DNA of 26,387 nucleotides from Chloroflexia bacterium (GTDB lineage Bacteria; Chloroflexota; Chloroflexia; QHBQ01; JAICKM01). Numbering within the stretch: the first letter of the stretch is position 1; each line of letters opens with the position of its first letter. A program made the translations under genes and the position numbers. The stretch covers positions 1-26,387 of the forward strand of contig JBBSAN010000009.1 in the NCBI GenBank assembly GCA_038252265.1, written 5' to 3'. Below are positions 10,898 to 26,385 of the stretch, piece after piece. A model generated the notes under the pieces. It did not search any database. It had not been told where the DNA came from and saw only the letters and a list, made by a program, of their open reading frames with translations.

Positions 10898-11667
10898 GTT
10901 TGCTCCATCTGGCCCGCCACCGGTGGGATACGCAGCACCATCCCGGCGGCCAGCCGAAACGGATCAATAATGTCATTATAGATCGCCAGCAAGCGCCAGG
11001 CATCGGCGCGGCCAAAGTAGGTGTAGGCGAGCAGATCCAGTCGCTCGCCGGTGCCCGGCTCTTCCCCGTCGCCTCCCCCCTGGATCTCGTGGAACAGGTC
11101 GCCGTTTCCCACGTCCGGGGGGAGTTCCGCTGGGTTCTCCGGCACGGGCGGCAGCATCTCCAGAAAATCCGCCGGATCGGGCGGGGGCGTGGTTGTTTCC
11201 GGCGTGCTGGGTTCGCGCACGCGGAGCAGCCGCAGGCGCATCCACGAGCGCTGCGCGGCCCCGGTCGCGCTGAATTGCTCGAGCCGTTCTGCCACCGCCG
11301 TGATCACCCCCGGCACGTTCCAGGCCTTACCCCACACAAAACGCACCACTGGGGGCTGACCATACCCATCTCTGCCGGTCCCGTTCTCGGCCAGATTCCA
11401 GAGCGGGGCGGTGAGATCACGCACATCTTCAGTGGTGATGGAGGCACCGCCCAGGTTGATATCGAAGAGCAAGTCCATTTCGAGTTCCGTCCGCCCGCCC
11501 CCGGTGTAGAGCAGCGGATCATCGGCCAGCCCGGTCCCGGTCAGTTGCCCGCCCGCCGACCGGCGGGGCCGCACGCCCGCCAGCCGGCGCATCACCAGTG
11601 TATCGGGGTTCAGCAAACAGGTCAGTGTTTCGTTGCGCTCTTCGAGAAGAAAGGCTACGCGCTCCAT
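10894..11667 (-). CDS. Tube-initiator / baseplate hub protein with C-terminal LysM-like domain (Afp7/Pvc7/gpX-like)
   Basis: C-terminus ERLDLLAYTYFGRADAWRLLAIYNDIIDPFRLAAGMVLRIP fits the LysM consensus. Position immediately 5' of the gpD-like gene is as in P2 (X-D) and eCIS (afp7-afp8). Confidence 0.7.
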   Translation of the reverse strand: MERVAFLLEERNETLTCLLNPDTLVMRRLAGVRPRRSAGGQLTGTGLADDPLLYTGGGRTELEMDLLFDINLGGASITTEDVRDLTAPLWNLAENGTGRDGYGQPPVVRFVWGKAWNVPGVITAVAERLEQFSATGAAQRSWMRLRLLRVREPSTPETTTPPPDPADFLEMLPPVPENPAELPPDVGNGDLFHEIQGGGDGEEPGTGERLDLLAYTYFGRADAWRLLAIYNDIIDPFRLAAGMVLRIPPVAGQMEQT

Positions 11668-13016
11668 TCGAGGCCTCGCTGTTCACGGTCTAGCCGCTGG
11701 AGCCGTTCCCAGGCGCGCAGGGCCACGGCCAGATCGTCGCCGGGCAGCGGGTCCTCGTCCGGCAGGGTGGGCCAGGGAGAACGCAGCCCTGCCTGCTCAA
11801 TCGCAGCCATGCCCGCAGGCGGGGAGGGAGTTGTCTGGGGGGCCATGCGGGGCCGCCGCGCCGGGCCAGGCGGTGATACCCTGGACACCCACTCTTCCTG
11901 GTTGACCTCCGGCCAGACCAACATCTCCAGGGGCGGAGCGGCGGTGACCGGCCCTCGTCTCGCCGCAGAAAAAGGAGAACGCCCGGCTTCCGCAGTCGTG
12001 GCGAACCGGGTCCACCCCGGCGCGCTCTCAGCTGGTCGGGCCGGGTGTACGGCCTCATGCCCTCCCGACTCGGCCTGCGGCCCTACCGGGACCACGCCCC
12101 TACCGGCAAGGGGAGGCGGTTTTGTCCGCCCGCCCGCTCTATCTCGCGGGGGCGGCAGGCGTTGCCCGGTTGGGGCGGGTCTGCCTCGCTCCGGCGGTCG
12201 TTCCGGCGTTTCTGCCAACCCTGGATCGAGCGCGGGCGGCTGGCCTTCTGCGGTCACCCGATCGGCCCTGGTGACGGCGCGGGGCGCTGCCTGCTGCGGC
12301 GGGATCGCCGCTCCCCTTTCCAGCGCCCCGCCGGCGCGGCCTGTGGCTCTGGCCCACGCCCCCTGTTCGAACGAGATCCCTCGTTCGGACTCGGGCCTGT
12401 GGGGCGGCTCCGTCCCCCTGACCCCGGCCCATCGGGTCGCTGGCGTTGGCCGTGGTGCCGCCGGGACCCCAGAACCTGTTGCGCCTGCGCGCCGGGCGGC
12501 AGGAGCAGGCGTGGCCTGCGGCTGTGCCAGTTCCGGCGGAGTTCCTGTCCGCCAGGGCGCCAGGATATCGGGCATCCGGAAGTTCCACAAGTTCCGCCCG
12601 GTTCCCGCTACGGGCCGAGCCGATACCCGCCGGCCCGGATGGCGGCGTCCCGCCGCTGGCCGGCCGGTGCGCCCCGCGTCCCCGGTCAGGGTGGGGGGAC
12701 GCACGCGGGCGGCTGGTCTGCTCGCGCCACCCCCGCTGGCCGGGCGGATGGCCGCGCCGGGCGGTGACCCGGTCGTGCTTCCCGAAGTAATCAGGGAGCC
12801 ATCGTCGGTGAGCAGTTCGGGTGCCCTGGCCCGGATGTCGGCCAGCCAATGGGCCGGGGGACCCGCCGAAGCAGGACGGGAGTCCCCCGAGGCTCCCTCC
12901 GGGCGGCGGGTCGTTGGCCGGTCGCTGTTCGCTTGCTGTAGCGCAAAGATCGTCAAGCGCCGCAGCGGGCGGGCCAGCACGCGCCAGCAAAAGGTCCAGA
13001 AAGCATGGGTAGCCAT
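11655..13016 (-). CDS. Pro/Ala/Arg-rich hypothetical protein (453 aa) in the tape-measure position. Reading frame uncertain in this stretch.
   Basis: ATG at 13016 lies 4 nt after the tube stop. The ORF exactly fills the tube-to-LysM gap and overlaps the LysM gene start by 13 nt. N-terminus (MATHAFWTFCWRVLARPL...) and C-terminus (...DDLAVALRAWERLQRLDREQRGLEWSA) look protein-like; the middle is low complexity. Several alternative frames are also open here (12139..12990-, 12045..12767+). Confidence 0.35.
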   Translation of the reverse strand: MATHAFWTFCWRVLARPLRRLTIFALQQANSDRPTTRRPEGASGDSRPASAGPPAHWLADIRARAPELLTDDGSLITSGSTTGSPPGAAIRPASGGGASRPAARVRPPTLTGDAGRTGRPAAGRRHPGRRVSARPVAGTGRNLWNFRMPDILAPWRTGTPPELAQPQATPAPAARRAGATGSGVPAAPRPTPATRWAGVRGTEPPHRPESERGISFEQGAWARATGRAGGALERGAAIPPQQAAPRAVTRADRVTAEGQPPALDPGLAETPERPPERGRPAPTGQRLPPPRDRAGGRTKPPPLAGRGVVPVGPQAESGGHEAVHPARPAESAPGWTRFATTAEAGRSPFSAARRGPVTAAPPLEMLVWPEVNQEEWVSRVSPPGPARRPRMAPQTTPSPPAGMAAIEQAGLRSPWPTLPDEDPLPGDDLAVALRAWERLQRLDREQRGLEWSA

Positions 13017-13020
13017 GCGC

Positions 13021-13461
13021 TCAGGCTCGCTCTAGCGTCTCGAACACCAGGGTCAACTGCTCAATCGCGGCCTCATGGGTGAGCGCGTTAAGCACGGCAC
13101 CCCGCCACTCGGCGGGCCAGGCGTTCACCAGATCCCAGCGGGTCAGCTCGGCCACCCCGTCGCTGTCGAGCATCAGGATCGACACATTCTTGCGATCCAC
13201 CTTGCCCTTCACGGCGGTCATAAACCAGTCCCACAGTTCGTGGGAGGCCGTCAGGCCATAGCTGAGGGTGACATCGCCATACTCGACCGGGCCGGGCAGC
13301 ACATGGGTGACCTGGCTTTGCCCCCCCTCCCGATATTTGATGGCGTGTACTTTGATGCCGATGCCGGTGCATTCGGTGAAATGCCCTTCGGTCACGCCCG
13401 CGATGACGAGCTTGAAGTTGTAACCCCGATAGGGTTCTGTGTACGTCCCAGGATTAGGCAT
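13021..13461 (-). CDS. Contractile tail tube protein (T4 gp19 / Afp1-Afp5 / Hcp-like family), 146 aa
   Basis: YRGYNFKLVIAGV...FTECTGIGIKVHAIKYREGG... has a typical tube-protein length and pattern. ATG at 13461 with SD GGAGGG. Overlaps the sheath stop by 8 nt. Confidence 0.9.
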   Translation of the reverse strand: MPNPGTYTEPYRGYNFKLVIAGVTEGHFTECTGIGIKVHAIKYREGGQSQVTHVLPGPVEYGDVTLSYGLTASHELWDWFMTAVKGKVDRKNVSILMLDSDGVAELTRWDLVNAWPAEWRGAVLNALTHEAAIEQLTLVFETLERA

Positions 13462-14743
13462 TGTTCCCTCCTGCTGGCGCGGTCTGGGTGCTCACGGCAC
13501 CGGCCCACTGGCTGATGCGGAAGATGATAAACTCGGCGGGTTTAACCGGCGCGATCCCGATCAGAATCACAACCATCCCAGCGTCGATGATATCCGGGGT
13601 ATTGGTCTCTTCATCGCATTTGACAAAGAAGGCCTGCTCGGGGGTTTGGCCCAGCAAGGCTCCATCCCGCCAGATCCGGGTGAGGAAGGCGCTGACATCG
13701 CGGCGAATGGATTTCCAGAGGGTCCGATCATTCGGCTCGAACACGATCCAGCGGGTGTTGTCCGCAATCGACTCCTCAATCATATTGAAGAGGCGGCGCA
13801 CGTTCAGATAGCGCCATTCGCTGGCGCTGGCGGCCAGCGTGCGCGCCCCCCAGACGCGGATGCCCTCGCGGACGAAGAAGCGGATGCAGTTGACGCCCGC
13901 CTGGTTTAGCTCGCCCTGCTCGTCGCGGGTCAGCCGGTAGGTGACATCCAGTGCGCCCCGCACGGTCTCATTGGCCGGGGCCTTATGCACCCCGCGGGTT
14001 GCATCGCTCCGCGCCCAGATCCCGGCCATATGCCCGGATGGGGGCACCGACACCAGATCGTTGGTGGTTGCCAGCGGATCCCGCACCAGGATATTGGGGA
14101 AATAGTAGGCACCATAGCCGCCGTCTGACTGGCGGGCGCGCAACCCGGTCTGATCTCCGCCTGCCGCCGGGGCTGCCGGGGGCGATCCGGCCCCGCCGTC
14201 TGCGGGGGTGCCGCCGCCCGCCGGTGGGGTGCCCCCACCCCCGCTTTTCTTCGCCTTTGGCGTGGCAACCTGGGTTAAGTCGTCAATATTCGTGACATCC
14301 GGCGGCGCGTCGAGGATCGCCACCCGATCTTTGAGCCGTTCACAATGGGTGAGCAGGGCATCATAGCTCGCGGCATCCGTATAGCCGGGCGCAGCGACGA
14401 TGGCGATCTCGTCGATGGCCTCGAAGAGATCTAACCCGCTGCGGGTGCGCCCGCCGCCGGTGATCGCGCCCCCCGCCCCGACATTGCAAACGTAGCAACG
14501 GCTGCCGCCATTCTGAAAGAAGCCATACACCGCGTGGGCGAGCGGGGTGCTGGCCGTACTGCCGACGGCGAACGTGTTGACAAATTGCGTCCAATTATTG
14601 ATCGCCATAGCGACATTCACCGGCGCATTGGGGTCCGGGGCCACGCCAATAAAGCCTGCGGTACTGGTGCCTACCGCCTCAATAGGTCGCCCGCCACCAG
14701 GGACCTCTTCGACATAAATATCCGGTGCTAAGTAGGTCGGCAT
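13454..14743 (-). CDS. Contractile tail sheath protein (429 aa) with a Gly/Pro-rich surface insertion
   Basis: MPTYLAPDIYVEEVPGG... is the canonical sheath N-terminus (xYxAPGVYVEE). The ATG at 14743 has a perfect SD AAGGAGG 6 nt upstream. The ORF-track start at 14761 is a TTG. Confidence 0.9.
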   Translation of the reverse strand: MPTYLAPDIYVEEVPGGGRPIEAVGTSTAGFIGVAPDPNAPVNVAMAINNWTQFVNTFAVGSTASTPLAHAVYGFFQNGGSRCYVCNVGAGGAITGGGRTRSGLDLFEAIDEIAIVAAPGYTDAASYDALLTHCERLKDRVAILDAPPDVTNIDDLTQVATPKAKKSGGGGTPPAGGGTPADGGAGSPPAAPAAGGDQTGLRARQSDGGYGAYYFPNILVRDPLATTNDLVSVPPSGHMAGIWARSDATRGVHKAPANETVRGALDVTYRLTRDEQGELNQAGVNCIRFFVREGIRVWGARTLAASASEWRYLNVRRLFNMIEESIADNTRWIVFEPNDRTLWKSIRRDVSAFLTRIWRDGALLGQTPEQAFFVKCDEETNTPDIIDAGMVVILIGIAPVKPAEFIIFRISQWAGAVSTQTAPAGGNNA

Positions 14744-14757
14744 ACTATCCCTCCTTA

Positions 14758-15438
14758 TCAATCGAACAGGTTAAAGTGGATCACCAGCGGCTCACCCCCG
14801 CCAGGGAGTGCAGTCGGCTGTACGCTCAGTTCGCGTCCTTTCGCCCCCACCAGCAAGTGCAGCTTCTGTGGCTCGTCCGGCACCAGTGCAAAGCGAAAAC
14901 GGCCACGCCTATCGGTTCGGGTGGTTCGGCCCAGCCCGACCAGTTCCACTCGCGCATCGGCCAGGGGGATATCATTCGGCCCCAGCACCAGCCCGATCAG
15001 GGTGGTCAGCGGGGTCGTCTGCACGCTGGGCAAGCTCCGCACGAGCTTGACGTCCGGCTCCGGTCGCTCCATCCGTAGCGGAACTCGGATCACAAAGGCG
15101 GGCCGAGGGGCCGTGCCGAGACCCGCCCAGGTCGTGGCCGGTAGCGGGTCCGGATCGACCTCGAACTCCGGCTTCTCCAATGCCGCGAACACGAGTTGTC
15201 CCAGCAGGCGATGGGCTTCCTCCGGCGAGTCGGCCCAGGTGGTCACGAGATACCGCAGCATCACTTGCAACGGCGCGCGGGTTGCCGTCCGGGCCAGGGG
15301 GGTAGGGATCATCTCCAGTAAGTAGACATTGACCATACTGCCACTCTGCGCCGGGGCAGGCACCCCGAATGACACCGCGATCCCCGAGATAACCCCTGCG
15401 ACCCAATCCTTGAGGCTCTGGTCTGTCTGATCGATCAT
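14758..15438 (-). CDS. Tail terminator/cap protein, DUF4255 (Pvc16/Afp16 N-domain) plus carboxypeptidase-regulatory-like C-domain
   Basis: MIDQTDQSLKDWVAG...VSFGVP...VNVYLLEM...LRYLVTTWA matches the DUF4255 pattern (MI.D.D..L...L, YLITAW). C-terminus LIGLVLGPNDIPLADARVELVGLGRTTRTDRRGRFRF fits a CarboxypepD_reg fold. ATG at 15438 is preferred; the track start at 15507 is a GTG. Confidence 0.75.
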   Translation of the reverse strand: MIDQTDQSLKDWVAGVISGIAVSFGVPAPAQSGSMVNVYLLEMIPTPLARTATRAPLQVMLRYLVTTWADSPEEAHRLLGQLVFAALEKPEFEVDPDPLPATTWAGLGTAPRPAFVIRVPLRMERPEPDVKLVRSLPSVQTTPLTTLIGLVLGPNDIPLADARVELVGLGRTTRTDRRGRFRFALVPDEPQKLHLLVGAKGRELSVQPTALPGGGEPLVIHFNLFD

Positions 15439-16192
15439 CGTCTGCTCACCGGGTAGTGTGTCTACGGAGCCTTGAAGAACGTGCGGCCAACGACGATCTT
15501 CAACCACTTTGTTCGCCAGCCTATCCTGACCGGCGACGCGCCGCTGTCAGCACTGACGCTCCAACACCGAGAGTTCGTTGGCAAACTGCCGCAACACTTC
15601 GACAAAGTCACGTTTGGTGTTCGGCGTGGCGGCTTCGACCCGTTGTTGGCTGACTGGTGGGTTCGACCCCGATGAAGCGATCAGCAGGTGTCGTGGTGGT
15701 CCTACTCGTCGTCGGTACAGGTTACACGCCGTGGTTGTGGTGGGAAGCAGTGGGCGGGCAACAGAGGCGGCATGGAGTTCTTTGCTCTTTTCAGTGCCCC
15801 AGCCAACAACCTGCGCTGGCGCATCGGGGCGAGCATAGCGAGCGAGCACATCTTACACCTTGGTTGTGAGGCCCGTCTTGGCCTTGAGGATGCACAATCT
15901 GAAAAGGTGAAGCGGTCTCCATGTCGAGTAGTGTGGTCATCCCGTCAATGGTTAGGGGGTAAAAACAGGAACTCTAAGTGAGATTATATTCCAAAGGGAT
16001 CGTCTAGTCAATAGGATCAGCGGGCGCTTTCGGTCAATTGCACCTAAATTAGGCATAGGCCCGCGCCATGAGGCCCGAAATGGCCTGATTGGTGGTTGGT
16101 GCTCGTGCCTGGTCGCAACGGGAGCCAGGACAAGACGTATCTCTGCGTACCCACTTTAGCTGCACTCGCCCTGGGTACCGCCAACCAGGGGC

Positions 16193-16229
16193 TAGACTTC
16201 CGCACAAATGTTCGCTATAATGGAGGTAT
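16193..16229 (+). promoter_or_regulatory. Sigma70-like promoter: TAGACT (-35, 16193-16198), 17-bp spacer, TATAAT (-10, 16216-16221). It would give a leaderless or very short-leader transcript starting at the ATG at 16228.
   Basis: Read directly. The GGAGG at 16222-16226 is only 1 nt from the ATG, so it cannot act as an SD. Confidence 0.35.
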
Positions 16230-17412
16230 GCTCATCCAATCGGCACCGGATACTCTGGATAAACTGGCCCAGATGGGGAACGCCACGGCGTTTGAGCCGG
16301 CAGGCGATGCGCCCACGCGCGAAACCATCGCTGCGCCGGGGCCGCCAGGCCGGTATCAGTCGCATAGCCTGGCCGACTGCATCACGCATGTCGCCACGCC
16401 GACCGGGCAGAAGCCGATCCTCAAGACGATGCTGACCACCGCCTGCGAGCGCAATTGCTTCTATTGCCCCTTCCGCGCCGGGCGAACCAAAACCGTCCGC
16501 GTCACCTTCGGCCCCGATGAGTTGGCGCGCGGCTTCTCCACCCTTCAGCAGGCCGGGCAGGTGGACGGCTTGTTCCTCACCTCGGGCATTATCCAGGGCA
16601 GCGTCGCCACCGAGGACCGGCTGCTGGCGACGACCGATCTGATCCGCAATCGCTATGGCTACCGGGGCTACGTCCACCTCAAGATCATGCCCGGTATCGA
16701 ATACGCCCAGTTGTACCGGGCGATGCAACTGGCCGACCGCGTGTCGGTCAACCTCGAAGCCCCGACCCAGGAGCGGCTGAACGCCCTCGCGCCGAAGAAG
16801 GATTTTGCCCGCGAACTGTTGCAGATGCTGCACTGGGCCGAGACGATCCGGCGGGAACACCCGGAGGAGAAGCTGGCCCGCACGGTGACGCAGTTTGTGG
16901 TCGGGGCGGCGGGCGAGACCGACCGGGAGTTGATGGCGCTCAGCGCCCGGCTCTATCGCCAGTGGGGGCTGACCCGTGCCTACTACTCGGCCTTCCACCC
17001 CATCGTGCAAACCCCGTTTGAGCACCTGCCCGCCACCGACCCGGTGCGCGAGCGGCGGCTCTATCAGGCCAGTTTCCTGCTGCGCGACTTCGGCTGGGGG
17101 GTGGACGAGTTGGCGTTCGAGCCGGATGGCAACCTGCGCACCGACGTAGACCCGAAGCGGGCCTGGGGCGAGGCCCACCTGCGTCACGCGCCGCTGGAAC
17201 TGATGACCGCCTCGCGTGAGCAGTTGCTGCGGGTGCCCGGCATCGGCCCGGTGGCTGCCGACGCGATCCTGCGGGGCCGCCGCGCCGCACACCTGACCGA
17301 TCTGAGCCAGTTGCGGCGGCTGGGCCTGCGGGCACCCGAGCAGGCCGCCCCCTACATTCTGCTCAATGGGCACCGCCCGCCCATGCAGCTATCCCTCTTC
17401 GACCGGCCCTGA
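16228..17412 (+). CDS. Radical SAM protein with C-terminal helix-hairpin-helix (putative DNA modification/repair radical SAM family)
   Basis: CERNCFYCPF (CxxxCxxC) and C-terminal LLRVPGIGPVAADAILRGRR (HhH). Start at the ATG at 16228; the track start at 16096 lies in AT-richer intergenic DNA. Confidence 0.7.
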   Translation: MLIQSAPDTLDKLAQMGNATAFEPAGDAPTRETIAAPGPPGRYQSHSLADCITHVATPTGQKPILKTMLTTACERNCFYCPFRAGRTKTVRVTFGPDELARGFSTLQQAGQVDGLFLTSGIIQGSVATEDRLLATTDLIRNRYGYRGYVHLKIMPGIEYAQLYRAMQLADRVSVNLEAPTQERLNALAPKKDFARELLQMLHWAETIRREHPEEKLARTVTQFVVGAAGETDRELMALSARLYRQWGLTRAYYSAFHPIVQTPFEHLPATDPVRERRLYQASFLLRDFGWGVDELAFEPDGNLRTDVDPKRAWGEAHLRHAPLELMTASREQLLRVPGIGPVAADAILRGRRAAHLTDLSQLRRLGLRAPEQAAPYILLNGHRPPMQLSLFDRP

Positions 17413-17441
17413 CCCGTATCCGACCACTGCCGAGCACATTC

Positions 17442-18446
17442 CTAGCTGCGCCCGATTAAATGGGCGTGCCGGTCGGCCAGCCCGATCCGGGCAATGGCCC
17501 CCGCGTTGAAGGCCAGGTAATCGCTCTCGATCCCATCGCTGAAAATAACCCCAACGTCCGGCATCTGCGAGGTGATCACCAACTCCTGGCCCGGGCCAAG
17601 CTGCCCGATGACTAAACCCGCCTGCGAGCTTTTCGAGGGGAACGGCTCGCGCACCGCGAACCACAGCCGGGCGGCGGCCCATCCCAGCGCGAGCGCCTCT
17701 GGCCCCGGCGGGGCGGCAGGGCTGGCCCCGAAGTGCTGCGCGATCTGCCACGCGCCGGTGGTGATCGCCCGCAGCCAGCCGGTGCAGCCCGCGCCCGTCG
17801 CCACAATCAAGCCGCTGGAACTCTGCTGCTCGCGCTGCCCCTCGAACTCCAGGGCATAGCGGGCCGAGACATGGGTGCGCGCCCCGATGAACAGGTCGTT
17901 GACCGCATACAACACCTGGCCGTCATTGAGCGTCGCCTGGGCCATGGTGATCGGGGTCACCGCTACCCGGCCCTCTATGGCGCGGGGCAGCCAGGTCGCC
18001 AGATCGCGTACCCCAAACGGGATCAGGATCCCGTCGATCCGATCGGGATCGGGGTTAATCGCCAGGATCGGCTGGGTAGTCAGATACTTGGCCGTATTGA
18101 TCACCAGGCCATCCGGGCCGAGCGTGATCACCAGGTCACGCTCGCCAAACTGGAAGGTCGGCAGGAACTCCCGGTCGATGAACTGGTGCTTGATCGTTCG
18201 CGGCAACTGCTGCTGGATGGCGACCAGCGCCTGCTGGTACTGCCCCGCGGCGCGCTCGTATTCGGCAAAGGAGACGCCATTTTGCTCCAGGTAAAAGCGG
18301 GCCTGGCCGGGGGAGTTCAGCCGGGCCACCAGTTCCGCCAGCGGCGTTTTCTTGGTCACCACGACGATCTTCTCGATCTCCGGCCCGGCGGGGGGTGGGC
18401 GGGGCGCAGCATTCGGCTGCGCCCCGATCCGGCGGGACAGGCCCAT
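17442..18446 (-). CDS. ATP-NAD kinase / diacylglycerol-kinase-like superfamily protein (putative)
   Basis: DLVITLGPDGLVINTAKYL (degenerate GGDG motif) and NDLFIG (NE/D motif). ATG at 18446 with SD GAAGG. The track start at 18497 is a GTG. Confidence 0.45.
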   Translation of the reverse strand: MGLSRRIGAQPNAAPRPPPAGPEIEKIVVVTKKTPLAELVARLNSPGQARFYLEQNGVSFAEYERAAGQYQQALVAIQQQLPRTIKHQFIDREFLPTFQFGERDLVITLGPDGLVINTAKYLTTQPILAINPDPDRIDGILIPFGVRDLATWLPRAIEGRVAVTPITMAQATLNDGQVLYAVNDLFIGARTHVSARYALEFEGQREQQSSSGLIVATGAGCTGWLRAITTGAWQIAQHFGASPAAPPGPEALALGWAAARLWFAVREPFPSKSSQAGLVIGQLGPGQELVITSQMPDVGVIFSDGIESDYLAFNAGAIARIGLADRHAHLIGRS

Positions 18447-18501
18447 TGTATACCTTCTTTCTGCGGTGGGGGCCGTGCGGTGGCCCCGGATCGCCACCGC
18501 G

Positions 18502-19365
18502 CTAGCGGTTCAGCAATTGTTCGAGGATCTCGGTCGTGATGGTCAGATTGCCGATTTTGGCGGCGTTGGCCGCGAAATCGCGGAAGGCGATCCCCAGCAC
18601 CAGCCGGGCATCCAGCGCCTGATAGGGGGTCAACTGGATGCGCAGGGCTTCCGCCTCAAACGCCGCTAGGGCCTGGGTGTTGGCCCCCTGCAAGGCGACC
18701 AACTCCTGGCGGCGCTGCTCCAGGTCCACCGCGGTCGATAGCTCGTTCTGCTTGATCGCGCGTTCCTGCTCGACCGCAGCGGCGCGGCGCGCATAGATGG
18801 CCTGGTCGGCCCGCTGTTGCACTGCCTCCCGCGACTCGGCCTCCAGGGCTTTGGCGAGTTCGGGGGTGGCTTTGAGCGCGGTAAAGAAGAGGCTGACGAT
18901 TTCGACCCCCAGTTCGCCCAGGCTCGGCTCGGCCTGCATCCGGGCCAGCACTGTCTGCGCCAGCGCTGCTGTGCTGTGCAGGGCGGCTTCCAGCCCCAAC
19001 TGCTGGAGTTCGGCGCGCGTATGCATCTGCACGACATTGATGATCCGCTGGTCCAGTTTCTGGGGATCGTCGGCGCGATATTGCCGGGTCCGCGGCTGAA
19101 TGGTGAAGTTCAGCAAGCGGGCCAGGGTTTCGGGGGCGGTAATGTGATAGGTCAACTGGCCTTGCACGGTGACGGGCTGGAACGTGCGGGTCGTTTCGTT
19201 GAAGACGAACAGGGCATCCACCGTCGCCACGGGCATCAGGACGATCGAGGTGGAAGGGGACCAATACCAGAACGCTCGCCCGGCCCCCTGGCAGAAGATC
19301 CGGCCATTGTTGTAAGCCAGGACATATTCTGTCGGCTCGGCCTTAAAAAATCCCAGCAGGGCCAT
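18502..19365 (-). CDS. SPFH / band-7 (stomatin-prohibitin-flotillin-like) domain protein
   Basis: MALLGFFKAEPTEYVLAYNNGRI...IVLMPVATVDALFVFNETTRTFQPV... followed by a long Ala/Glu/Gln-rich coiled-coil tail. ATG at 19365 with SD AAAGGAGG at 6-nt spacing. Confidence 0.65.
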   Translation of the reverse strand: MALLGFFKAEPTEYVLAYNNGRIFCQGAGRAFWYWSPSTSIVLMPVATVDALFVFNETTRTFQPVTVQGQLTYHITAPETLARLLNFTIQPRTRQYRADDPQKLDQRIINVVQMHTRAELQQLGLEAALHSTAALAQTVLARMQAEPSLGELGVEIVSLFFTALKATPELAKALEAESREAVQQRADQAIYARRAAAVEQERAIKQNELSTAVDLEQRRQELVALQGANTQALAAFEAEALRIQLTPYQALDARLVLGIAFRDFAANAAKIGNLTITTEILEQLLNR

Positions 19366-19631
19366 CAGTGCCTCCTTTGGTGGTCCGCCCGGAAACGCCG
19401 CGCGTACGATGCGAGGCCGGTCGGTAACGGATAATAATTGTCTAATAGACACTAACTAACAGGACTAAAAATGAGCTGCCCGGACCTGAACGATCTAGCA
19501 GTATTCATGTACCAACTACACTAAGTATAGCACGCGAAGGGGGATCTGTCAATAGCTGCGCGTGGACGTTAGCGCATCCATCTCCCGGCGGGGGAGCCGG
19601 GCTGATGCAACGTCGGTGTGGCCCAACCCCA

Positions 19632-19754
19632 GGCAGTCATCCTGCGCGCCGCGCAGGATCTTGTTGGGGCGACCACATCGTTAGGGAAGATCGGGAGCGT
19701 CGCCTCCACACCTTTGCTTGCCAACAAGATCCTGCGCGGCGCGCAGGATGACTG
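19632..19754. repeat. Perfect 35-bp inverted repeat (arms 19632-19666 and 19720-19754) flanking a 53-bp spacer. Each arm contains an internal 21-nt palindrome atcctgcgcgccgcgcaggat.
   Basis: Read directly: gcagtcatcctgcgcgccgcgcaggatcttgttgg and its exact reverse complement ccaacaagatcctgcgcggcgcgcaggatgactgc. Lies in the 640-bp divergent intergenic region between the SPFH and MCP genes. Confidence 0.9.
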
Positions 19755-19929
19755 CGGAGATGGGATCGCACCGACCGATGGTGTATCAGCCGTGGGCAGG
19801 GGACCCTGCACAAGCCCGCCCTTATCAGCGAGAATTATGGGTTTCTTTGTGTTCGACCTCGCCTCGTGGGTCTGCCGATCCCGCAGCCTACCGTCCGTTC
19901 TGTTACCAGGGTGGTATACGTGTGTTACC

Positions 19930-19948
19930 CCATAATAGTGTATTATGG
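19930..19948. promoter_or_regulatory. Palindrome CCATAATA-gtg-TATTATGG, 59-77 nt upstream of the MCP start. Candidate operator and/or -10 element.
   Basis: Read directly. Arms are TATAAT-like. Confidence 0.3.
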
Positions 19949-20006
19949 AATGGAGAATGCCGGAGGATGGCTCCATGGGGTATCGGGGTATTCAGAGGAG
20001 ACACAC

Positions 20007-21458
20007 ATGCTTAACTGGTTCCTGACTTGCCGCGCGATCGACCTCGATCAGAGCCAGCGCGGGCGCTTATTAAACTGGTTCTTGTTGATCTTCACCGCGT
20101 TCGCTCTGATCAATGTGAGTTGGACCTTGACCCTGGGCCTGGGCGATGTGGGCTTGCTGCTGCTCCTCGTGGTGGGCCTGCTGCTCGGCATCCATGCCCT
20201 GAATCGCCGGGGCGCGGTGGATGGGGCCGCAGCCAGTCTGGTGGGGCTGCTCTTTGTGGCGATCCATATCCTGTGTATCTCACCGGCGGGTGGCCTGGTC
20301 GCCGCCGGGATGGCTCCGACTCTCCTGGCGATTCCCATCGTCCTGGCCGGCGTCACGCTCCCCTGGCGCGCCACCCCGCTCGTCGGCGGCCTGGCCGCCG
20401 TTGATACCCTCTGGCTCTATACGACGGGCCTCTCGTCGCTGACGGGCTACTGGCAGACCAATTTCGTGGACATGTTGGCCCTGGTGTTTTCGACGCTGAC
20501 GCTGCTCGCCACCCTTGGCCTGCTCGCCGCGCTGTCCGGTCGCCAGATCCAAACCAGCCTGACCCACTTGCGCCAGCGGAATGGGGATCTGGAAGCGGCC
20601 AACCTGGCGCTGGCGCAGCAACACCAGGGCGAGCAGGCGCTGGGGGCCGGGATCAGCGATCTGGCGGCCCGCTTAGCCGCCGTGAGCCAGCACGAGGTCC
20701 GGGGGGTGGCGACCCAGGCCCAGGCGATCCGCCAGGTGGTCGGCGTGGTCGATCAGCTTAATACTGCCGCCCAACGGATCGCGGCGCTCGCCGCCGAGGT
20801 GAGCGCCGCGGGGGCGACTGCCCTGGGGCGCGTCCAGCAGGCCCAGGAGCTGGTCCGGCAGAACCATACTGCGGTGCAGCAAAACCGCGCGCAGATCGAA
20901 GAGGTGATCGCCAGTATGCAGACGCTGGAACAAGGAACGGACCACCTGATCAGGTTTATGAACCGGATGCAGGATCTATCGGATGAGACCCAATTGCTGG
21001 CCTTGAACGCGACGATTGAGGCCGCCGGGGCGGAGGGGCGGGGGCACCGGTTTGGGGTCGTGGCCGTTGAGGTGCAGCACCTGGCCCTGCGCGCCAATGA
21101 GACGGTGACCCAGATGCGCGCCCTGATCCGCTCCTTACAGGCGGCAGGCCAGCAAACCCAGGGGGCGACGCGGCGGAGTATCGCGGTGGCCGACGATGTG
21201 GACCACCTGACCGAGGAACTGCGCGGTGCCCAGGCGCAGGTGGAGGCGACGGTGCAGCGGACCAGCGACCTGGGGCAGTTGATCCGGACGGCCACCGGCC
21301 AGCAGACCGCTGACGCCGCCCAGATGACCCAGACCATTCAGCAGATCGCCCAGGTTGCCCAGGAGACCAGGGAGAATACCACGGCCCTGGAGCAGGTGGT
21401 CGGTGAGATGACCCAGGCGGCGGGCGTGCTCACCCGCGCTATGGCCGCCCGCCTCTAG
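20007..21458 (+). CDS. Methyl-accepting chemotaxis protein (multi-TM N-terminal region plus MCP signalling domain)
   Basis: LLALNATIEAAGAEGRGHRFGVVAVEVQHLALRANETV is the canonical MCP highly-conserved-domain motif. ATG at 20007 with SD AGAGGAG 6 nt upstream. N-terminal 250 aa are hydrophobic. Confidence 0.85.
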   Translation: MLNWFLTCRAIDLDQSQRGRLLNWFLLIFTAFALINVSWTLTLGLGDVGLLLLLVVGLLLGIHALNRRGAVDGAAASLVGLLFVAIHILCISPAGGLVAAGMAPTLLAIPIVLAGVTLPWRATPLVGGLAAVDTLWLYTTGLSSLTGYWQTNFVDMLALVFSTLTLLATLGLLAALSGRQIQTSLTHLRQRNGDLEAANLALAQQHQGEQALGAGISDLAARLAAVSQHEVRGVATQAQAIRQVVGVVDQLNTAAQRIAALAAEVSAAGATALGRVQQAQELVRQNHTAVQQNRAQIEEVIASMQTLEQGTDHLIRFMNRMQDLSDETQLLALNATIEAAGAEGRGHRFGVVAVEVQHLALRANETVTQMRALIRSLQAAGQQTQGATRRSIAVADDVDHLTEELRGAQAQVEATVQRTSDLGQLIRTATGQQTADAAQMTQTIQQIAQVAQETRENTTALEQVVGEMTQAAGVLTRAMAARL

Positions 21459-21806
21459 AGTGCCCCGGCGCGGACAGCGGCGTCCTGGGCCAAGTCCCGC
21501 GCTTCTTCGCACTCGCCGGCGGGGCGCTAGGCCACGCGGCTCAGCGCGGCCAGGCGTCGGACGAGTCGGTGGCGGACTCTGCCTCGCTCCCCACAAGTAG
21601 GCAACGATCCCCCCGTAATTGTACCTCCCTTTGCCCCACCCAACCCGATCTCGCCCCGGTTCTCGGTCCCTGCGCCGCCGGTGGACGATGTTTGTAAGTA
21701 GGCATCCTTTTCTCTGGCTGCCGGGCTGCTATACTGGCAAGCAACCGCATCATAAGGAGATAAGCGATCTATGTCTGTTGAACTGACTCCCCAAGGGATG
21801 ATTATG

Positions 21807-22778
21807 TCACCGGCTGGGGACACCGGTCTGCCCATTCGGCGGCGGGGCGGGGCGGCCCGGCGCGGTGCAGCCGGTGATGCGGTAGGTATCTACCAGGAGG
21901 TTGCCCCGCGTGATGGTCTGGAAAGTCAGGGTATTGGTGGCGGGGTTGGCATCCACGCGCATGGCCCCATAGTCGCCAGAGAAGCGCGCCGCACTGCCGG
22001 GGAGCGTGAAGATCGTGGGGTAGAGGCTGGTGCCGCCGATGCCGTTCACAAAATAGGGTAGCTTGGTCGCCGGGTCGATAATGCGCTCATAGTCGTGATC
22101 ATGCCCGGCCAGGACCGCCGTCGCGCCCCACCGGGCGTAGGGCCACTGGAGCGCCGGGGTCGAGCTATGCACTCCGGACGAGTAGGGCGGGTGGTGCATT
22201 GTGACGATTCGCCAGCACGCGGTAGAGGCGGCTAACTCCTTGCGTAGCCACTGGCCCTGCGTTGAGGTGCTGCTGACGCTGCTCGATTCGCCGGTGCCGC
22301 TGTCCAGGACGAAGACCTGAACGGGTCCCTGCGTGAATGTATAGTAGCGTTCGTTGTTGGGCAGGGTGAAGTAGTCGCGGTGTGGCTGGCCGCCCGCGGT
22401 GGCCCCGTCGTGGTTGCCCAGGGTAGGGAAGAATTTGTTGACCGGCGCGCCCGCCCTGTAGCGGCCCGTATAAGGATAAATGAAATCGTGGTAATACTGG
22501 CCGATGTTCTTGTCAATCGTGCTGGCGGCCCCGCTGGGATAGTTATTATCGCCCGTGGTGACGATGAAATCGGGGTTCCAGGAGTGGACGCGGTTCGACA
22601 CATCCAGCTCAGCCTGGCCCGCCGTGCCATAGTCGCCAATAACGGCGAAGCGGATCGCGGGAGTGGCCGGCTGTTGCTGGGGTTCCGCCCAGACGGTAGC
22701 GACGGCGGCCCCCATCCCCAGCAGCGCCAGTATGGTTAATGCGCCTGCTATAAGGGATCGTCTACCCCGCTTGATCAT
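21807..22778 (-). CDS. Secreted metallophosphoesterase (purple acid phosphatase-like, calcineurin-like fold)
   Basis: Signal peptide MIKRGRRSLIAGALTILALLGMGAAVA. Motifs VIGDYG, TTGDNNY, LGNHD, GHDHDYER. ATG at 22778 with SD TAGGAGG. Confidence 0.8.
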   Translation of the reverse strand: MIKRGRRSLIAGALTILALLGMGAAVATVWAEPQQQPATPAIRFAVIGDYGTAGQAELDVSNRVHSWNPDFIVTTGDNNYPSGAASTIDKNIGQYYHDFIYPYTGRYRAGAPVNKFFPTLGNHDGATAGGQPHRDYFTLPNNERYYTFTQGPVQVFVLDSGTGESSSVSSTSTQGQWLRKELAASTACWRIVTMHHPPYSSGVHSSTPALQWPYARWGATAVLAGHDHDYERIIDPATKLPYFVNGIGGTSLYPTIFTLPGSAARFSGDYGAMRVDANPATNTLTFQTITRGNLLVDTYRITGCTAPGRPAPPPNGQTGVPSR

Positions 22779-23282
22779 GGATGCCTCCTAAGTTCGACGG
22801 CCTTGAAGTACCGGCAGTTGGCTCTGGGCGCGCTCCCGTTCGCGGGTCTTGCCGGGCCAGCGCGCCAGGTTCGGTACCAACAAGGCATAGGGAGTGTCAG
22901 GCGCAAGTCGTATGCTACAGGCTGCCGGGCGCACCGGCCCATGCGGTGACCCCCTATCCGGTGCCCGTAGGGTCCCTGGTCCCTGTTTGTTTGGTATAGA
23001 ACGCGGGTCGCTACGGCGGTGAGGATAATCGTGCTAGCCAGGTTACATACGCATTGTAGGAGGAGAAGGTGAACAGCGTATGAACAAGTAGCCGGAAGGA
23101 GATGACAAGCTGAATGCCGATAAGCAGCGGCGTTGCCGCAGGAGATCCCGGTGGGTTGCGGCGTCGGCGGGGTTCAGCCGGCTGAACTCCCGCCTCGTCC
23201 AGCATCCTCGGTGATTTCTCCGGGCTGAACTGTAGGGGAATATATCTGCCCCTTACCGGACTACAGGGCGGGTGGCGCGATG

Positions 23283-23320
23283 TCAAACGACCGAGAGCTA
23301 CCTAGCTCTCGGTCGTTTGA
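23283..23320 (-). terminator. 38-bp near-perfect palindrome (18-bp stem caaacgaccgagagcta / tagctctcggtcgtttg) about 25 nt downstream of the tRNA-Gln 3' end. Likely a tRNA transcription terminator or bidirectional terminator.
   Basis: Read directly. No long U-tract on either strand. Confidence 0.45.
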
Positions 23321-23344: not shown

Positions 23345-23418
23345 TGGCTGGGGTGCAAGGATTCGAACCTCAATTGACTGATCCAGAATCAGCTGTCCTA
23401 CCTTTAGACGACACCCCA
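23345..23418 (-). tRNA. tRNA-Gln (anticodon CUG), 74 nt, CCA encoded
   Basis: Manual fold of UGGGGUG-UC-GUCU-AAAGGUA-GGAC-A-GCUGA-UUCUGGA-UCAGU-CAAU-UGAGG-UUCGAAU-CCUUG-CACCCCA-G-CCA. It has a U1-A72 pair and G73 discriminator (bacterial tRNA-Gln identity features), a GG in the D-loop and a TΨC loop UUCGAAU. Anticodon CTG sits at 23386-23384. Confidence 0.85.
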
Positions 23419-23489: not shown

Positions 23490-23858
23490 TCAGTCTCCGC
23501 GCAGGTGGACCGGATCGTCGGCATAGAACTCGGTGTAGCCGCAGGTACCGCAGACCCAGGCGCTGACTTTGCTGTTCCGCCAGTTGAACAGGCCCAAATA
23601 GCGTTGAAGCCTGACACCGCCCTGCGTCAGCAGGCGCGCTCCAACCGCGCTGCCGCCGCATTTGGGACAGGGGAAGGCCGCCGGGTCGCCCACCGGATCG
23701 TCGCCTGGCTCCGGGTCTGCAGATTGATCGGCTCCGGGTTGCTCCGGGGCCGGGGGGCGGCGGATCCGGCGACGGCTGCCGGTCGGATCGAGCCGCCGAG
23801 TCGGATGTTCGGGTGCCTGATCCTCGTGCGGATCAAGGCGTCGGGTGGGGTGGTCCAT
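23490..23858 (-). CDS. Small zinc-ribbon protein, array paralog 1 (122 aa). N-terminal duplicated PTRRLD motif plus CPxCG...CxxCGYTEFY.
   Basis: ATG at 23858 with SD AGGAGA. MDHPTRRLDPHEDQAPEHPTRRLDP...CPKCGG...CGTCGYTEFYADDP. Confidence 0.6.
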   Translation of the reverse strand: MDHPTRRLDPHEDQAPEHPTRRLDPTGSRRRIRRPPAPEQPGADQSADPEPGDDPVGDPAAFPCPKCGGSAVGARLLTQGGVRLQRYLGLFNWRNSKVSAWVCGTCGYTEFYADDPVHLRGD

Positions 23859-23867
23859 CAGTATCTC

Positions 23868-24137
23868 CTATAGCTCCAGCAGCTTCTTCGGCTCGTTGGC
23901 ATACAACTCGGTGTAGCCACAGACAATACACATGAAGGCCACCACCGAGGTTTCGGGTGCTCTCCGCAAAAGGCGTAGCGGGAGGTTGAGCGGTTGCAGG
24001 CACAGGTTGCGGGCGGCATTGCCGTGTCCCCGGTCAATGGCGCGCACCCAGATCATCTTGCCGTGGCACTTGGGACAGGGGTCGTCCGTCTTCGGTGCCA
24101 CTGCGGGGGCATTGAGACGCCGTGTTGGTTGATCCAT
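23868..24137 (-). CDS. Small zinc-ribbon protein, array paralog 2 (89 aa)
   Basis: ATG at 24137 with SD AGGAGAAG. MDQPTRRLNAPAVAPKTDDPCPKCHG...CIVCGYTELYANEP. The longer track ORF (start 24203) adds a non-conserved leader. Confidence 0.6.
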   Translation of the reverse strand: MDQPTRRLNAPAVAPKTDDPCPKCHGKMIWVRAIDRGHGNAARNLCLQPLNLPLRLLRRAPETSVVAFMCIVCGYTELYANEPKKLLEL

Positions 24138-24151
24138 CTGTGCTTCTCCTG

Positions 24152-24484
24152 CTAGCTCTTCAGCCGGTCCAAATCGTTGACGTACAAGTCGAGATAGCCA
24201 CAAGCGGGGCAGGCCAGTGCCCGGACCGAACTGCTACCGCCCAGCCAACCCATCAGCACATCGGCCCGCCGGGCGGTGAGTGCCCGTTCTGCCAGCAGGT
24301 CTACGTCTATGGGCGGGTCTGCACTACCGCACTTGCCGCAGGTGGGCGGGGGCGGGCTGACGGGGCGAACCCGGCGGCGGCGGGCGGGCGGCGGCGTAGA
24401 CACCGGGCCTACGTTCTCTCACTGGATCGAGTCGCGGTCGGGCAGGTCAGCGGGATTTAACCGCTGTGTTGGACGATCTTCCAT
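24152..24484 (-). pseudogene. Zinc-ribbon array paralog 3 with an in-frame TGA (codon 22, plus coordinates 24419-24421). Pseudogene, sequencing error, or stop-codon read-through.
   Basis: ATG at 24484 (SD GGAGTG) gives MEDRPTQRLNPADLPDRDSIQ-TGA-ENVGPVSTPPPARRRR...CGKCG...CPACGYLDLYVNDL in one frame. The track ORF 24152..24403 is the portion after the stop, starting at a GTG. Confidence 0.5.
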
Positions 24485-24490
24485 CCGGCA

Positions 24491-24811
24491 TCACTCCATC
24501 AGTTGGGATAGGTTGGCCGCGTAGAGCTTGGTGAAGCCACAGTCGGTGCAGACGCGGGCCTCCAGCGGGCTGCGACCCTTCGCCTTCGCGGCCTGGCGGA
24601 TCAGCAGCTCGCGCATCGACACCCCCAGGCGCTCGACCACGATATCGCCGGTGCCAAAGCGCAGGCGCGCCGCGATCAACGGGCCGCCGCATTCGGGGCA
24701 GATAGCGGGCGGCGGGGCCGCGCCCGAGGGTGGGGCCGCATCGGTCAGGCGGCGGGTTGGGTGTTCCGGCGGCGCGTCGGCCTCGTCCAGGCGGCGCGTT
24801 GGTTCATCCAT
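24491..24811 (-). CDS. Small zinc-ribbon protein, array paralog 4 (106 aa), duplicated PTRRL motif
   Basis: ATG at 24811 with SD GAGGAGG. MDEPTRRLDEADAPPEHPTRRLTDA...CPECGG...CTDCGFTKLYAANL. Confidence 0.6.
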   Translation of the reverse strand: MDEPTRRLDEADAPPEHPTRRLTDAAPPSGAAPPPAICPECGGPLIAARLRFGTGDIVVERLGVSMRELLIRQAAKAKGRSPLEARVCTDCGFTKLYAANLSQLME

Positions 24812-24888
24812 TGGTTCCTCCTCAAAAGCCAATTCGATTCAGCCTTATATACGTGGCCGGGCCGCCCGGTGTTGCGCGAGCACACAAA

Positions 24889-24930
24889 ACAAACACCCGC
24901 GAAATCTAGCCTGATCTCCCGGGTGTTTGT
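24889..24930 (-). terminator. Rho-independent-like terminator inside the zinc-ribbon array. 11-bp stem (acaaacacccg/cgggtgtttgt) with a 20-nt loop, followed on the minus strand by UUUUGUGUG.
   Basis: Read directly, in the 142-bp gap between paralog 5 (stop 24954) and paralog 4 (start 24811). Confidence 0.4.
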
Positions 24931-24953
24931 ACTGGATAGGCGGCGAGGTGGCC

Positions 24954-25178
24954 TTATTCCTGGAAGAAGCCGTCGATATCGGCAATATAGAAATCCACCC
25001 AGCCGCACTCGCTGCAAACCCAGGCGATCATGGTGCTGCCTGCGGCCATCGGGCCTTCGGTGCGGTGGAGCCAGTTGCGGTCGGCTCCCTGGGCGATCAG
25101 TTCGCCCCCTTCCATATCGGCCCCACAGCGGGCGCACGTCGGGGGCGCGTCGTCGGGGTCGTCAATCCGTTGGTTCAT
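24954..25178 (-). CDS. Small zinc-ribbon protein, array paralog 5 (74 aa, divergent, lacks the PTRRL motif)
   Basis: ATG at 25178 with SD AAGGAGG at about 11-nt spacing. MNQRIDDPDDAPPTCARCG...CSECGWVDFYIADI. Confidence 0.5.
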   Translation of the reverse strand: MNQRIDDPDDAPPTCARCGADMEGGELIAQGADRNWLHRTEGPMAAGSTMIAWVCSECGWVDFYIADIDGFFQE

Positions 25179-25197
25179 GCGGATCTGTTCCTCCTTA

Positions 25198-26385
25198 TTA
25201 TTGGTTGCCGCCGGACGGGCCGGTTGGCATGAGCTGTTTGTATTGCTGCCAGTTGCGATTATAATCCTGAATGCTCTGCTCTGCATAGGTGCGGGCGCGG
25301 TCTGCCGTACCGCTCGCGTTGTCGAACGCCTGCTGGGTGGTGATCACCGCGTTGCAGTCGGCGCGGGCCTTGGTCTGATCACAGGCGGTCTGGGCCAGTT
25401 TCAGGTCATCCTGGGCCTGTTGCGCCTTGTAGATCGCATAAGCCATCGCCCCCAGGTCCTCGATGTATTGCTGGGCAGCGATGACGCCCTGACCACGGGC
25501 CGCCAGGGCATTGGTCATCTGCTGGTGATGCTGCCGCTGCTCGGACGGGACCGCCAGTTGGGCCAGTTGGCTCTTCACGCTGGAGCTATCATCCACGAAC
25601 TTCTCGAACTGGGTGGCCGCGATATCATAGCCCAGGGAGCCGTTTTGCACCCCTTCCATCGTATGCTCGATGTCGGCGTCCTGCGCGGTCACCTGCTGGA
25701 GGATGGTGGCGAGCTGCCCGAAATAGTGTTCGGCGCGGGCCTGGGCGGTGACGGTAGGGGCGGCGGCCTGGGTCGCCTCGCGCCGAGCGGTGGCCTGGGC
25801 GACCGCTCCCTGGGTGACGGTGGCGACCACGGTCGCCGTCGCATTGCTACTGGCGGCGGCAGCCTGAGCCGTGGCCTCGGCGCTGGACTGCTGGGCCGGG
25901 CGGATGGCAAAGGCGTAGACGCCGACCAGCGCCAGCAACAGCACGACCCCTACTGTGATCAGCCCCCCCATCAGCAAGCGGCGAGCCGCGCCCGGCTGGG
26001 CCGTCCTGGGCCGTTTGGGAGCCAGCACCGTCTGGGGGGGCGGCAGTTCGTGGGGGATAGCCGGGGCGGGCGGCTCGGCAAGCTCGGCGGCATTCAGAGG
26101 CCGGGAGATCAGACTTCGCGGTTGCGGCGCGATACTCAGGTCCAGCGGGGTGCTGCTCAGGAGCGGCCCCTGGCCGAGCGCCTGGGCGGTCAGCACGCCG
26201 GTTGCGGGCGGATTGGCCGAGGTGGACGTGGCCGGGGCGGTGGCACCCGCTGCGGGCAACGGTCGCCCGCAACGCAAACAAAAGCGGTCGCCCGGATTCG
26301 CCCGCATCCCACAATTCGCACAGGCCAGGCTGTCTCCGGCCCCACGCGCGTCCGGCCCTGGTGTGTCGAGGGGCCGGGCCGCCAT
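25198..26385 (-). CDS. Membrane protein with N-terminal zinc-ribbon (CxxC-x14-CxxC), Pro/Ala-rich linker, one TM helix and a Q/A-rich extracytoplasmic domain. Anti-sigma / signal-transducer-like architecture. The start may lie beyond the window.
   Basis: ATG at 26385, 2 nt from the window end. CANCGMRANPGDRFCLRCG, then TM LLMGGLITVGVVLLLALVGVYAFAI. Confidence 0.5.
   Translation of the reverse strand: MAARPLDTPGPDARGAGDSLACANCGMRANPGDRFCLRCGRPLPAAGATAPATSTSANPPATGVLTAQALGQGPLLSSTPLDLSIAPQPRSLISRPLNAAELAEPPAPAIPHELPPPQTVLAPKRPRTAQPGAARRLLMGGLITVGVVLLLALVGVYAFAIRPAQQSSAEATAQAAAASSNATATVVATVTQGAVAQATARREATQAAAPTVTAQARAEHYFGQLATILQQVTAQDADIEHTMEGVQNGSLGYDIAATQFEKFVDDSSSVKSQLAQLAVPSEQRQHHQQMTNALAARGQGVIAAQQYIEDLGAMAYAIYKAQQAQDDLKLAQTACDQTKARADCNAVITTQQAFDNASGTADRARTYAEQSIQDYNRNWQQYKQLMPTGPSGGNQ

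Follow-up and report, generated by a model that had tools for sequence, protein, structure and literature searches.

What is the role of a set of small zinc-ribbon proteins, encoded side by side, whose folded domains have diverged while a short motif in their N-terminal tails has stayed the same? The question is raised by one end of a 26,387-nucleotide contig from a Chloroflexia bacterium (assembly GCA_038252265.1, contig JBBSAN010000009.1), referred to below as the window, which is the whole stretch of DNA analysed. On its minus strand, between positions 23490 and 25178, five consecutive open reading frames (ORFs), here called P1 to P5, encode proteins of 74-122 amino acids, each with a zinc ribbon of four cysteines. 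Four of them carry the motif, PTRRL or a close variant. We found that this motif occurs only together with this ribbon, that the ribbon represents a divergent lineage within the DUF2082 family (PF09855), and that arrays of such genes recur in Chloroflexota. The tail motif may act as a docking peptide, a reading that we favour tentatively and weigh below against its alternatives.

The array and its tail motif

All five genes lie where the initial annotation had placed them. P1 (23490-23858) encodes 122 amino acids. Its two copies of the motif (residues 4-8 and 19-23) precede an extended linker rich in proline and acidic residues, which leads to a ribbon whose cysteines are residues 64, 67, 103 and 106. 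P2 (23868-24137, 89 amino acids) has a single copy of the motif, in the N-terminus MDQPTRRLN, and the ribbon nearest to plain DUF2082, in which a DRGHGN segment is retained. P3 (24152-24484) comprises 110 codons. P4 (24491-24811, 106 amino acids) also has two copies of the motif (residues 4-8 and 18-22) and a helical insert in its ribbon. P5 (24954-25178, 74 amino acids) is an acidic ribbon paralogue, with a net charge of -10, and lacks the motif. With MDHPTRRLD in P1, MEDRPTQRLN in P3 and MDEPTRRLD in P4, the N-termini of P1-P4 follow the consensus M-[DE]-x-P-T-[RQ]-R-L-[DN]. An M-D-x-P-T-R-R-L-D start had been claimed for four genes; the motif is indeed present in four, in the looser form just given. 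The duplication reported for P1 and P4 was found in both, the second copy reading PEHPTRRL. The ribbons themselves were also correctly recognized, each gene having two CxxC knuckles spaced by 35-46 residues. The consensus strings first given for them were too narrow, since CPxCG holds for P1 and P4 only and CxxCG[YF]TE[FL]Y for P1 and P2 only. A C-terminal strand of the form CG[YFW]xx[LF]Y ends all five paralogues, with the variants GYLDLY, GFTKLY and GWVDFY in P3, P4 and P5.

When all six frames of the window were searched for P-[TS]-[RQKH]-[RKH]-[LFIMV], seven matches were obtained, six of which fall at the N-termini of P1-P4, on the minus strand: P-T-R-R-L at 23835-23849 and 23790-23804 (P1), at 24114-24128 (P2) and at 24788-24802 and 24746-24760 (P4), and P-T-Q-R-L at 24458-24472 (P3). 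Well under one match per window would be expected by chance, according to an estimate made by hand and without shuffling. As previously described, every gene has its own ribosome-binding site, a GGAG-type Shine-Dalgarno sequence being present ahead of all five starts, and the intergenic gaps from P4 to P1 are of 6-14 nucleotides. An intrinsic terminator (24880-24930, minus strand) separates P5 from P4, again as proposed at the outset. It consists of a hairpin (24889-24930) followed by a U-rich tract; the RNA hairpin folds with -36.5 kcal/mol (z -3.9), and one of 200 shuffled sequences folded equally well. A simple pattern scan missed this terminator because its loop is long.

How strictly the motif is kept is apparent from an alignment of 34 motif-bearing homologues, in which the mean column identity is 27% and the only invariant positions are the proline and threonine of the motif, the four cysteines and one glycine. 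Motif statistics were based on 165 instances in 110 proteins. The threonine is present in all 165 and never replaced by serine. Position +1 is R or Q, position +2 mostly R and position +4 mostly D or N, while position +3 is L in 142 instances, F in 18, M in 4 and I in one. On the other side, position -1 is P in 125 of the 165 instances and position -3 is D or E in 134, giving the near-invariant form [DE]-[HQ]-P-T-[RQ]-R-L-[DN]. Strict copies number one to three per protein, and P0075 has a fourth, looser one. The first copy begins at residue 4 or 5 in 83 of 96 proteins, and the last is separated from the first ribbon cysteine by 13-69 residues (median 20). The tails are rich in proline (19%) and mostly acidic (median charge -2), whereas the ribbons are mildly basic (median +1; +5 in P2). 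The codons used for arginine and leucine vary among motif copies, indicating that conservation acts on the protein and not on the DNA.

We then asked where else the motif occurs. A degenerate DNA pattern for M-D-x-P-T-R-R-L-[DN], applied to one genome per species (596 Gb), gave 48 matches, about the chance level. The real ORFs among these came from six loci, all six with a ribbon and all from Chloroflexota/Chloroflexia metagenome-assembled genomes (MAGs); a recurring group of Clostridia MAGs turned out to be an out-of-frame artefact. The same pattern gave 41 matches in a metagenome collection, also about the chance level, with one real ribbon gene. When 5.8 billion proteins were searched with a profile of the tail alone, 52 matches were obtained, 41 of them full ribbons and 11 truncated or frameshifted ribbons or junk repeats. 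Two entries, P0223 and P0228, consist of repeated 'FNPHPTRRLGA/DA' units that look like translations of DNA repeats rather than genes, and could mislead motif searches. The motif is thus found only with this ribbon, and every labelled carrier so far belongs to Chloroflexota. Since it sits on no other domain, the tail appears to be a fixed companion of the ribbon and not a tag common to other cargo.

Family, relatives and recurrent arrays

The suggestion that these proteins belong to DUF2082 was borne out. P1 matched the Pfam family PF09855 (Zn_ribbon_13/DUF2082) with 31.5 bits, above the gathering cut-off of 23, and the other four scored under it (P2 19.8, P3 13.1, P4 13.6 and P5 12.3 bits). 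Among the 34 motif-bearing homologues, 18 matched PF09855 at E <= 0.01, the only family to recur. Aligning the profile of the motif-bearing set with that of plain DUF2082 members by hhalign gave a probability of 99.5% (E 6.6e-23) over 74 columns, all in the ribbon; the alignment of plain members included P0045, which bears the PF09855 annotation. The first 34 columns of the motif-bearing profile, which correspond to the tail, had no counterpart. Plain members share the two CxxC knuckles, the beta-sheet insert and a C-terminal C-x-x-C-G-Y-T-E-L-Y-A strand, but they start 3-6 residues before the first cysteine and have no tail. What sets the subfamily apart is the PTRRL tail, the repetition of the motif and its confinement to Chloroflexota. 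Several further families of small zinc ribbons in bacteria and archaea (DUF6487, DUF7479, the YgiT/MqsA finger, Lar, TFIIS-type) are of the same fold class and show a generic likeness in Foldseek; unlike PF09855, they gave only weak matches below cut-off, for P3 and P5 only (DUF6487 with 19.4 bits for P5), and none has the tail motif. An exhaustive profile search of 1.84 billion representatives detected 1348 related cluster representatives at E <= 0.001, and P-T-[RQ]-R-[LF] was carried by 93 of 208 family sequences.

No entry of NCBIfam scored above cut-off, a sequence search of the PDB found nothing significant (best E 0.076), and a search of the literature on the DUF2082/PF09855 family and on the PTRRL motif retrieved no relevant study. 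The initial annotation had been unable to place the motif in any family, and nothing in NCBIfam, PADLOC, PHROGs or the literature search places it in one. COG3478, considered as a family number, was discarded, since it appeared only in a paper about urate oxidases of an unrelated family. AlphaFold2 (AF2) models of P1 and P4 show the ribbon as a four- to five-stranded beta sheet. The folded domain spans about 60-70 residues and varies greatly from one paralogue to another. In P1 the predicted local distance difference test (pLDDT) is about 90 for the ribbon (residues 61-120) and 55-70 for the tail; in P4 it is 81-89 for the ribbon strands and about 57 for the tail, and both tails are without secondary structure. 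The sequence comparisons thus indicate that the ribbon is a divergent, Chloroflexota-specific branch of PF09855, a family without a described function. The ribbon, itself uncharacterised, was already known as DUF2082; the lineage-specific tail and its motif are new. Among distant relatives are multi-ribbon DUF2082 proteins of 217-414 amino acids with two or three ribbons, in which T-x-R-L-like linkers (ATGATVRLE and QVTIRLD, for instance) precede the later ribbons. Nearly all of these proteins end in G/A-P-Y-R, a feature for which we have no explanation (P0094, P0103, P0137, which ends in S-P-F-R, P0145, P0158, P0163, P0185 and P0205).

Comparison with relatives showed how the array genes are maintained. 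In a relative with 92% nucleotide identity (L002, GCA_038246015.1), the gene for an upstream membrane protein, P5, P4, P3, P2 and tRNA-Gln follow each other in the same order as in the window. Ratios of non-synonymous to synonymous substitution (dN/dS, Nei-Gojobori) between the two were 0.05 for P5, 0.35 for P4, 0.28 for P3, 0.13 for P2 and 0.15 for the membrane protein, and P5 is 99% identical in amino acids to its counterpart. The dN/dS values of 0.05-0.35 for P2-P5, the Shine-Dalgarno sequence of each gene and the short gaps indicate that the array genes are real, conserved and expressed-looking chromosomal genes, predicted to encode small cytoplasmic proteins (they are small, with neither signal peptide nor transmembrane segment). 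Orthologues are 56-91% identical for P2 and 53-73% for P4, and the motif is conserved in them. Neither of the two outcomes that the initial annotation had named as refuting it was thus obtained, the matched family being uncharacterised and the motif being kept among orthologues. P1 is missing from L002, where about 25 nucleotides resembling its 3' end remain, and is present in a more distant relative (L058, 83-86% nucleotide identity), indicating that P1 is ancestral and was deleted in L002. L058 also holds an extra motif-bearing paralogue (3656-3889, MERPTRRLNEE...) inserted between P4 and P3; its contig has several frameshifts, so that some gene calls there are unreliable. The copy number in this clade is therefore four (L002), five (window) or six (L058).

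P3 is the copy for which an in-frame stop had been reported, and a TGA is present at 24419-24421, between the motif tail and the ribbon. The corresponding codon is TGG (Trp) in L002, in L003 and in the orthologue P0003, and the TGA is found again in an independent Logan assembly of run SRR19962010; together these observations point to a recent TGG to TGA change in P3. The stop would either inactivate P3 or split it into a 21-residue motif peptide and an 83-residue ribbon. A GTG at 24403 could serve as the start of this motif-less ribbon, and the annotation calls that form.

Similar arrays were found elsewhere. The L042/L056 locus has five genes, including a double-ribbon fusion, L004 has two and L059-L061 have three, and single short metagenome contigs hold three or four further family members each. 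In L004, L056, L057 and L059-L061, arrays of two, three or five genes always lie between an Aminotran_5 gene and a gene for an ArsA/Get3-like ATPase with an HSP20 domain; these genomes are closely related, so that this context counts as one observation. A 124-residue ORF and an RpoD-like sigma factor come next at this site. Single genes adjoin those of folate, glycine-cleavage, isoprenoid, fatty-acid or sugar-nucleotide metabolism, and no neighbour was found to recur across independent contexts. Within the array of the window, paralogues are 25-40% identical, whereas orthologues of P1, P2 and P4 show 45-91% identity and clearly outscore the other paralogues, which indicates that the paralogues are old and individually maintained rather than the outcome of a recent amplification. 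Tandem arrays of two to six old, diverged paralogues are thus a recurrent arrangement, whose membership changes by gain and loss among close relatives.

Possible roles of the tail

Short motifs kept this strictly in a disordered tail usually mark a specific binding event. The motif is constant while the ribbons diverge, and the simplest model is therefore a shared docking peptide recognized by one reader. The tail motif, often multivalent, would tie different ribbon modules to a common partner: diverged ribbon proteins would dock onto the same reader, several motif copies in one tail would add avidity, and the ribbons would supply differing specificities, for protein or nucleic acid. Of the readings considered here this is the one that we prefer, with a confidence that falls a little short of even.

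The invariant threonine, together with a hydrophobic +3 position and acidic residues on its N-terminal side, singles out phospho-threonine docking as the most specific version of this model. A Hanks-type kinase would phosphorylate the threonine of the motif, and an FHA domain would read the phosphothreonine (pThr). FHA domains prefer a hydrophobic residue at pT+3, and bacterial Hanks kinases have site preferences of their own. In our 165 instances the threonine is never serine and +3 is hydrophobic, as would suit a site read by an FHA domain, although this pattern is not specific to such sites. FHA domains accept pThr and reject phosphoserine (PMC3146460). Against this version stands the genomic context: within about 10 kb of the motif-bearing genes we detected no gene for a Hanks kinase, a PP2C phosphatase or an FHA protein, and a kinase gene was seen near one plain, motif-less family member only. 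We consider the phospho-threonine version a rather unlikely refinement of the docking model. Its layout recalls GarA/OdhI of Actinobacteria, in which a disordered N-terminal phospho-acceptor tail precedes a folded C-terminal binding domain. As there, the proteins described here are small and predicted to be cytoplasmic, with a conserved threonine motif in a disordered N-terminal tail and then a compact binding domain. The folded domain is here a zinc ribbon and not FHA, the motif is PTRRL and not ETTS, and no kinase or FHA gene is linked to the array; the likeness is one of layout only.

A candidate reader is suggested by the gene upstream of P5. The initial annotation had described there a 395-residue protein with a zinc ribbon, a transmembrane helix and an outside domain. 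The domains were recovered, but the length reflects a gene cut by the end of the contig: the ORF (25198-26385, minus strand) starts 2 nucleotides from that end, and its opening methionine is an internal one in the homologue P0229. Its visible part comprises a CxxC...CxxC zinc ribbon (residues 22-43; 22.2 bits against PF13240, below the cut-off of 25), a proline-rich linker, a transmembrane helix (about residues 147-171) and a helical outside domain with two cysteines. Homologues are 491-555 residues long and 42-74% identical, and the alignment begins at their residue 112 or later. Their additional N-terminus of about 110-160 residues contains a conserved TPR-like domain of about 85 residues and a proline-rich linker (P0229, P0232, P0237 and P0238 are full-length examples). 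The gene is therefore 5'-truncated, and the full protein is arranged as a TPR-like head, a linker, the zinc ribbon, a second linker, the transmembrane helix and the helical outside domain. P5 starts 19 nucleotides past the stop codon of this gene, ahead of the terminator, and the two probably form one transcription unit. TPR domains often bind short peptides, and the TPR-like head is therefore a candidate, within this clade, for reading the PTRRL tail. The membrane protein cannot be the general partner of the family, because only 12 homologues of it were found, far fewer than there are ribbon proteins. A further step would make the PTRRL tail the read-out code of a Chloroflexota signalling or adaptor system, in which ribbons are recruited, multivalently and in a pThr-dependent manner, to one hub. 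This hub could be a protein with an FHA domain or, on the cytoplasmic side, the TPR-like head that the upstream membrane protein carries; we regard this extended version of the docking model as improbable.

The principal rival to docking onto a separate reader is that the ribbon itself reads the tail motif. Binding could be in trans, to a second copy or to a paralogue, or in cis, with the tail as an autoinhibitory strand; the proteins would then form chains or joint assemblies head to tail, and paralogues would make hetero-oligomers. That the motif occurs exclusively with this ribbon favours such a scheme, as does the position of the motif, always 13-69 residues before the ribbon. Motif-like linkers are kept ahead of the later ribbons in the distant multi-ribbon fusions, tails with several motif copies and operons with several paralogues would be in keeping with chaining, and the tails are acidic where the ribbons are mildly basic. 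The AF2 monomers, however, leave the tail undocked on the ribbon and without a strand, no ribbon residue is conserved specifically in the motif-bearing members, and the tryptophan of the 'IWxR' segment is absent in P1 and P4. We consider self-assembly rather unlikely.

Slightly less probable still is a role as nucleic-acid binders, in which the ribbon would bind RNA or DNA and the arginine-containing tail would be an arm that becomes ordered on the nucleic acid. The mildly basic ribbons, the Arg-Arg of the motif and a weak likeness in fold to the TFIIS-type ribbons of the RNA polymerase subunits Rpb9 and RPA12 are consistent with it. However, these fold matches were not significant (E at least 0.44), P5 is strongly acidic, and the Pfam name, 'nucleic-acid-binding protein containing Zn-ribbon domain', is a prediction; the literature search found no study of the family. 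Moreover, the net acidic, proline-rich tails are unlike basic RNA-binding arms, and an arm of that kind was rejected on this ground.

The initial annotation had proposed that the N-termini might be targeting or packaging signals. The motif would then be an address for export, packaging or degradation (loading into an injection system, Tat-like export or a degron). This seemed conceivable because a contractile-injection-system operon is present in the window (5261-15507), 8 kb from the array, because the first motif copy lies at the very N-terminus, and because T-R-R-L is similar to the opening residues of the Tat consensus, S/T-R-R-x-F-L-K. A general signal should, however, mark varied cargo, and the genome, metagenome and protein searches found the motif on no other domain or protein family, which weakens the proposal. 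Unrelated genes and the tRNA lie between the operon and the array, and we found no link of the array to the injection-system genes of the window or to sigma factors. Injection-system genes were likewise missing from the family's other examined loci, within 10 kb of other arrays or single genes, so that the co-encoding across genomes expected of a cargo was not observed. Second to fourth motif copies, being internal, fit poorly with a strictly N-terminal signal. A Tat signal peptide was rejected, as there is no hydrophobic h-region and the Arg-Arg is followed by acidic, proline-rich, disordered sequence up to the ribbon. An address tag is thus a quite improbable reading.

That the array is cargo of a tRNA-linked genomic island or part of an anti-phage system is the weakest reading and is already largely refuted. 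It had been suggested by the neighbouring tRNA-Gln(CTG) gene (23345-23418, minus strand; detected by ARAGORN, Rfam 56 bits), and the copy number that varies between relatives and a tyrosine integrase next to the same tRNA in L002 could be cited for it, as in known tRNA-linked integrative islands. The array, however, is found 5' of the tRNA and keeps its synteny in two relatives at 83-92% nucleotide identity, whereas integrative elements occupy the 3' side of tRNA genes. In L002, homology to the window stops exactly at the 3' end of tRNA-Gln, and the integrase (408 amino acids, 2346-3711) begins 66 bp past that end, which places the integration site on the side of the tRNA away from the array; the island is present in L002 only. 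The array has a GC content of 0.61-0.66, like the rest of the window and with no shift in composition. Neither an integrase in the array nor a direct repeat of the tRNA 3' end was found within the window, PADLOC defence models did not match P1-P5, PHROGs gave no match, and phage and plasmid collections held no relatives except for one weak, ribbon-only match. In the other clade, moreover, arrays occupy a fixed site between housekeeping genes.

Surroundings of the array and meaning for the family

The tRNA-Gln gene has its own sigma-70 type promoter (23458-23430, minus strand), TTGACA-17-TATAAT, which matches at 12 of 12 positions. An inverted repeat just downstream of the tRNA (23263-23320), seen as a reverse self-match, is probably its terminator. 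Rfam detected no riboswitch or other regulatory RNA near the arrays besides the tRNA. Four genes between the injection-system operon and the tRNA encode a radical-SAM protein with helix-hairpin-helix motifs (16096-17412, plus strand), an SPFH/Band 7 protein (18502-19452, minus strand), a chemoreceptor-type (MCPsignal) protein (19866-21458, plus strand) and a calcineurin-like phosphoesterase (21807-22778, minus strand), and no link between these genes (16096-22778) and the array was seen. The operon itself, on the minus strand, encodes a Pvc16_N-like protein, the sheath, a CIS_tube protein, a VgrG-like spike (Phage_GPD and Phage_base_V), gp25, Baseplate_J and Tail_P2_I. Its Baseplate_J protein has 891 amino acids and contains BNR/sortilin-like repeats, and a 453-residue ORF (11655-13016) in a stretch of 75% GC has no Pfam match.

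Membership in DUF2082 says nothing on mechanism, as the family is itself functionally uncharacterised. It is also widespread, and the motif-bearing subfamily provides an experimental handle on it, namely a motif as strictly kept as the zinc ligands, located in a disordered tail and repeated. If the hub reading were true, the array would be a panel of interchangeable adaptors or a self-assembling scaffold; if the tail binds the ribbon itself, these proteins would be an example from nature of simple, modular self-assembly. Once its reader is identified, DUF2082 would have a first function, and a regulatory module peculiar to Chloroflexota, a phylum in which signalling has been little studied by experiment, could come to light.

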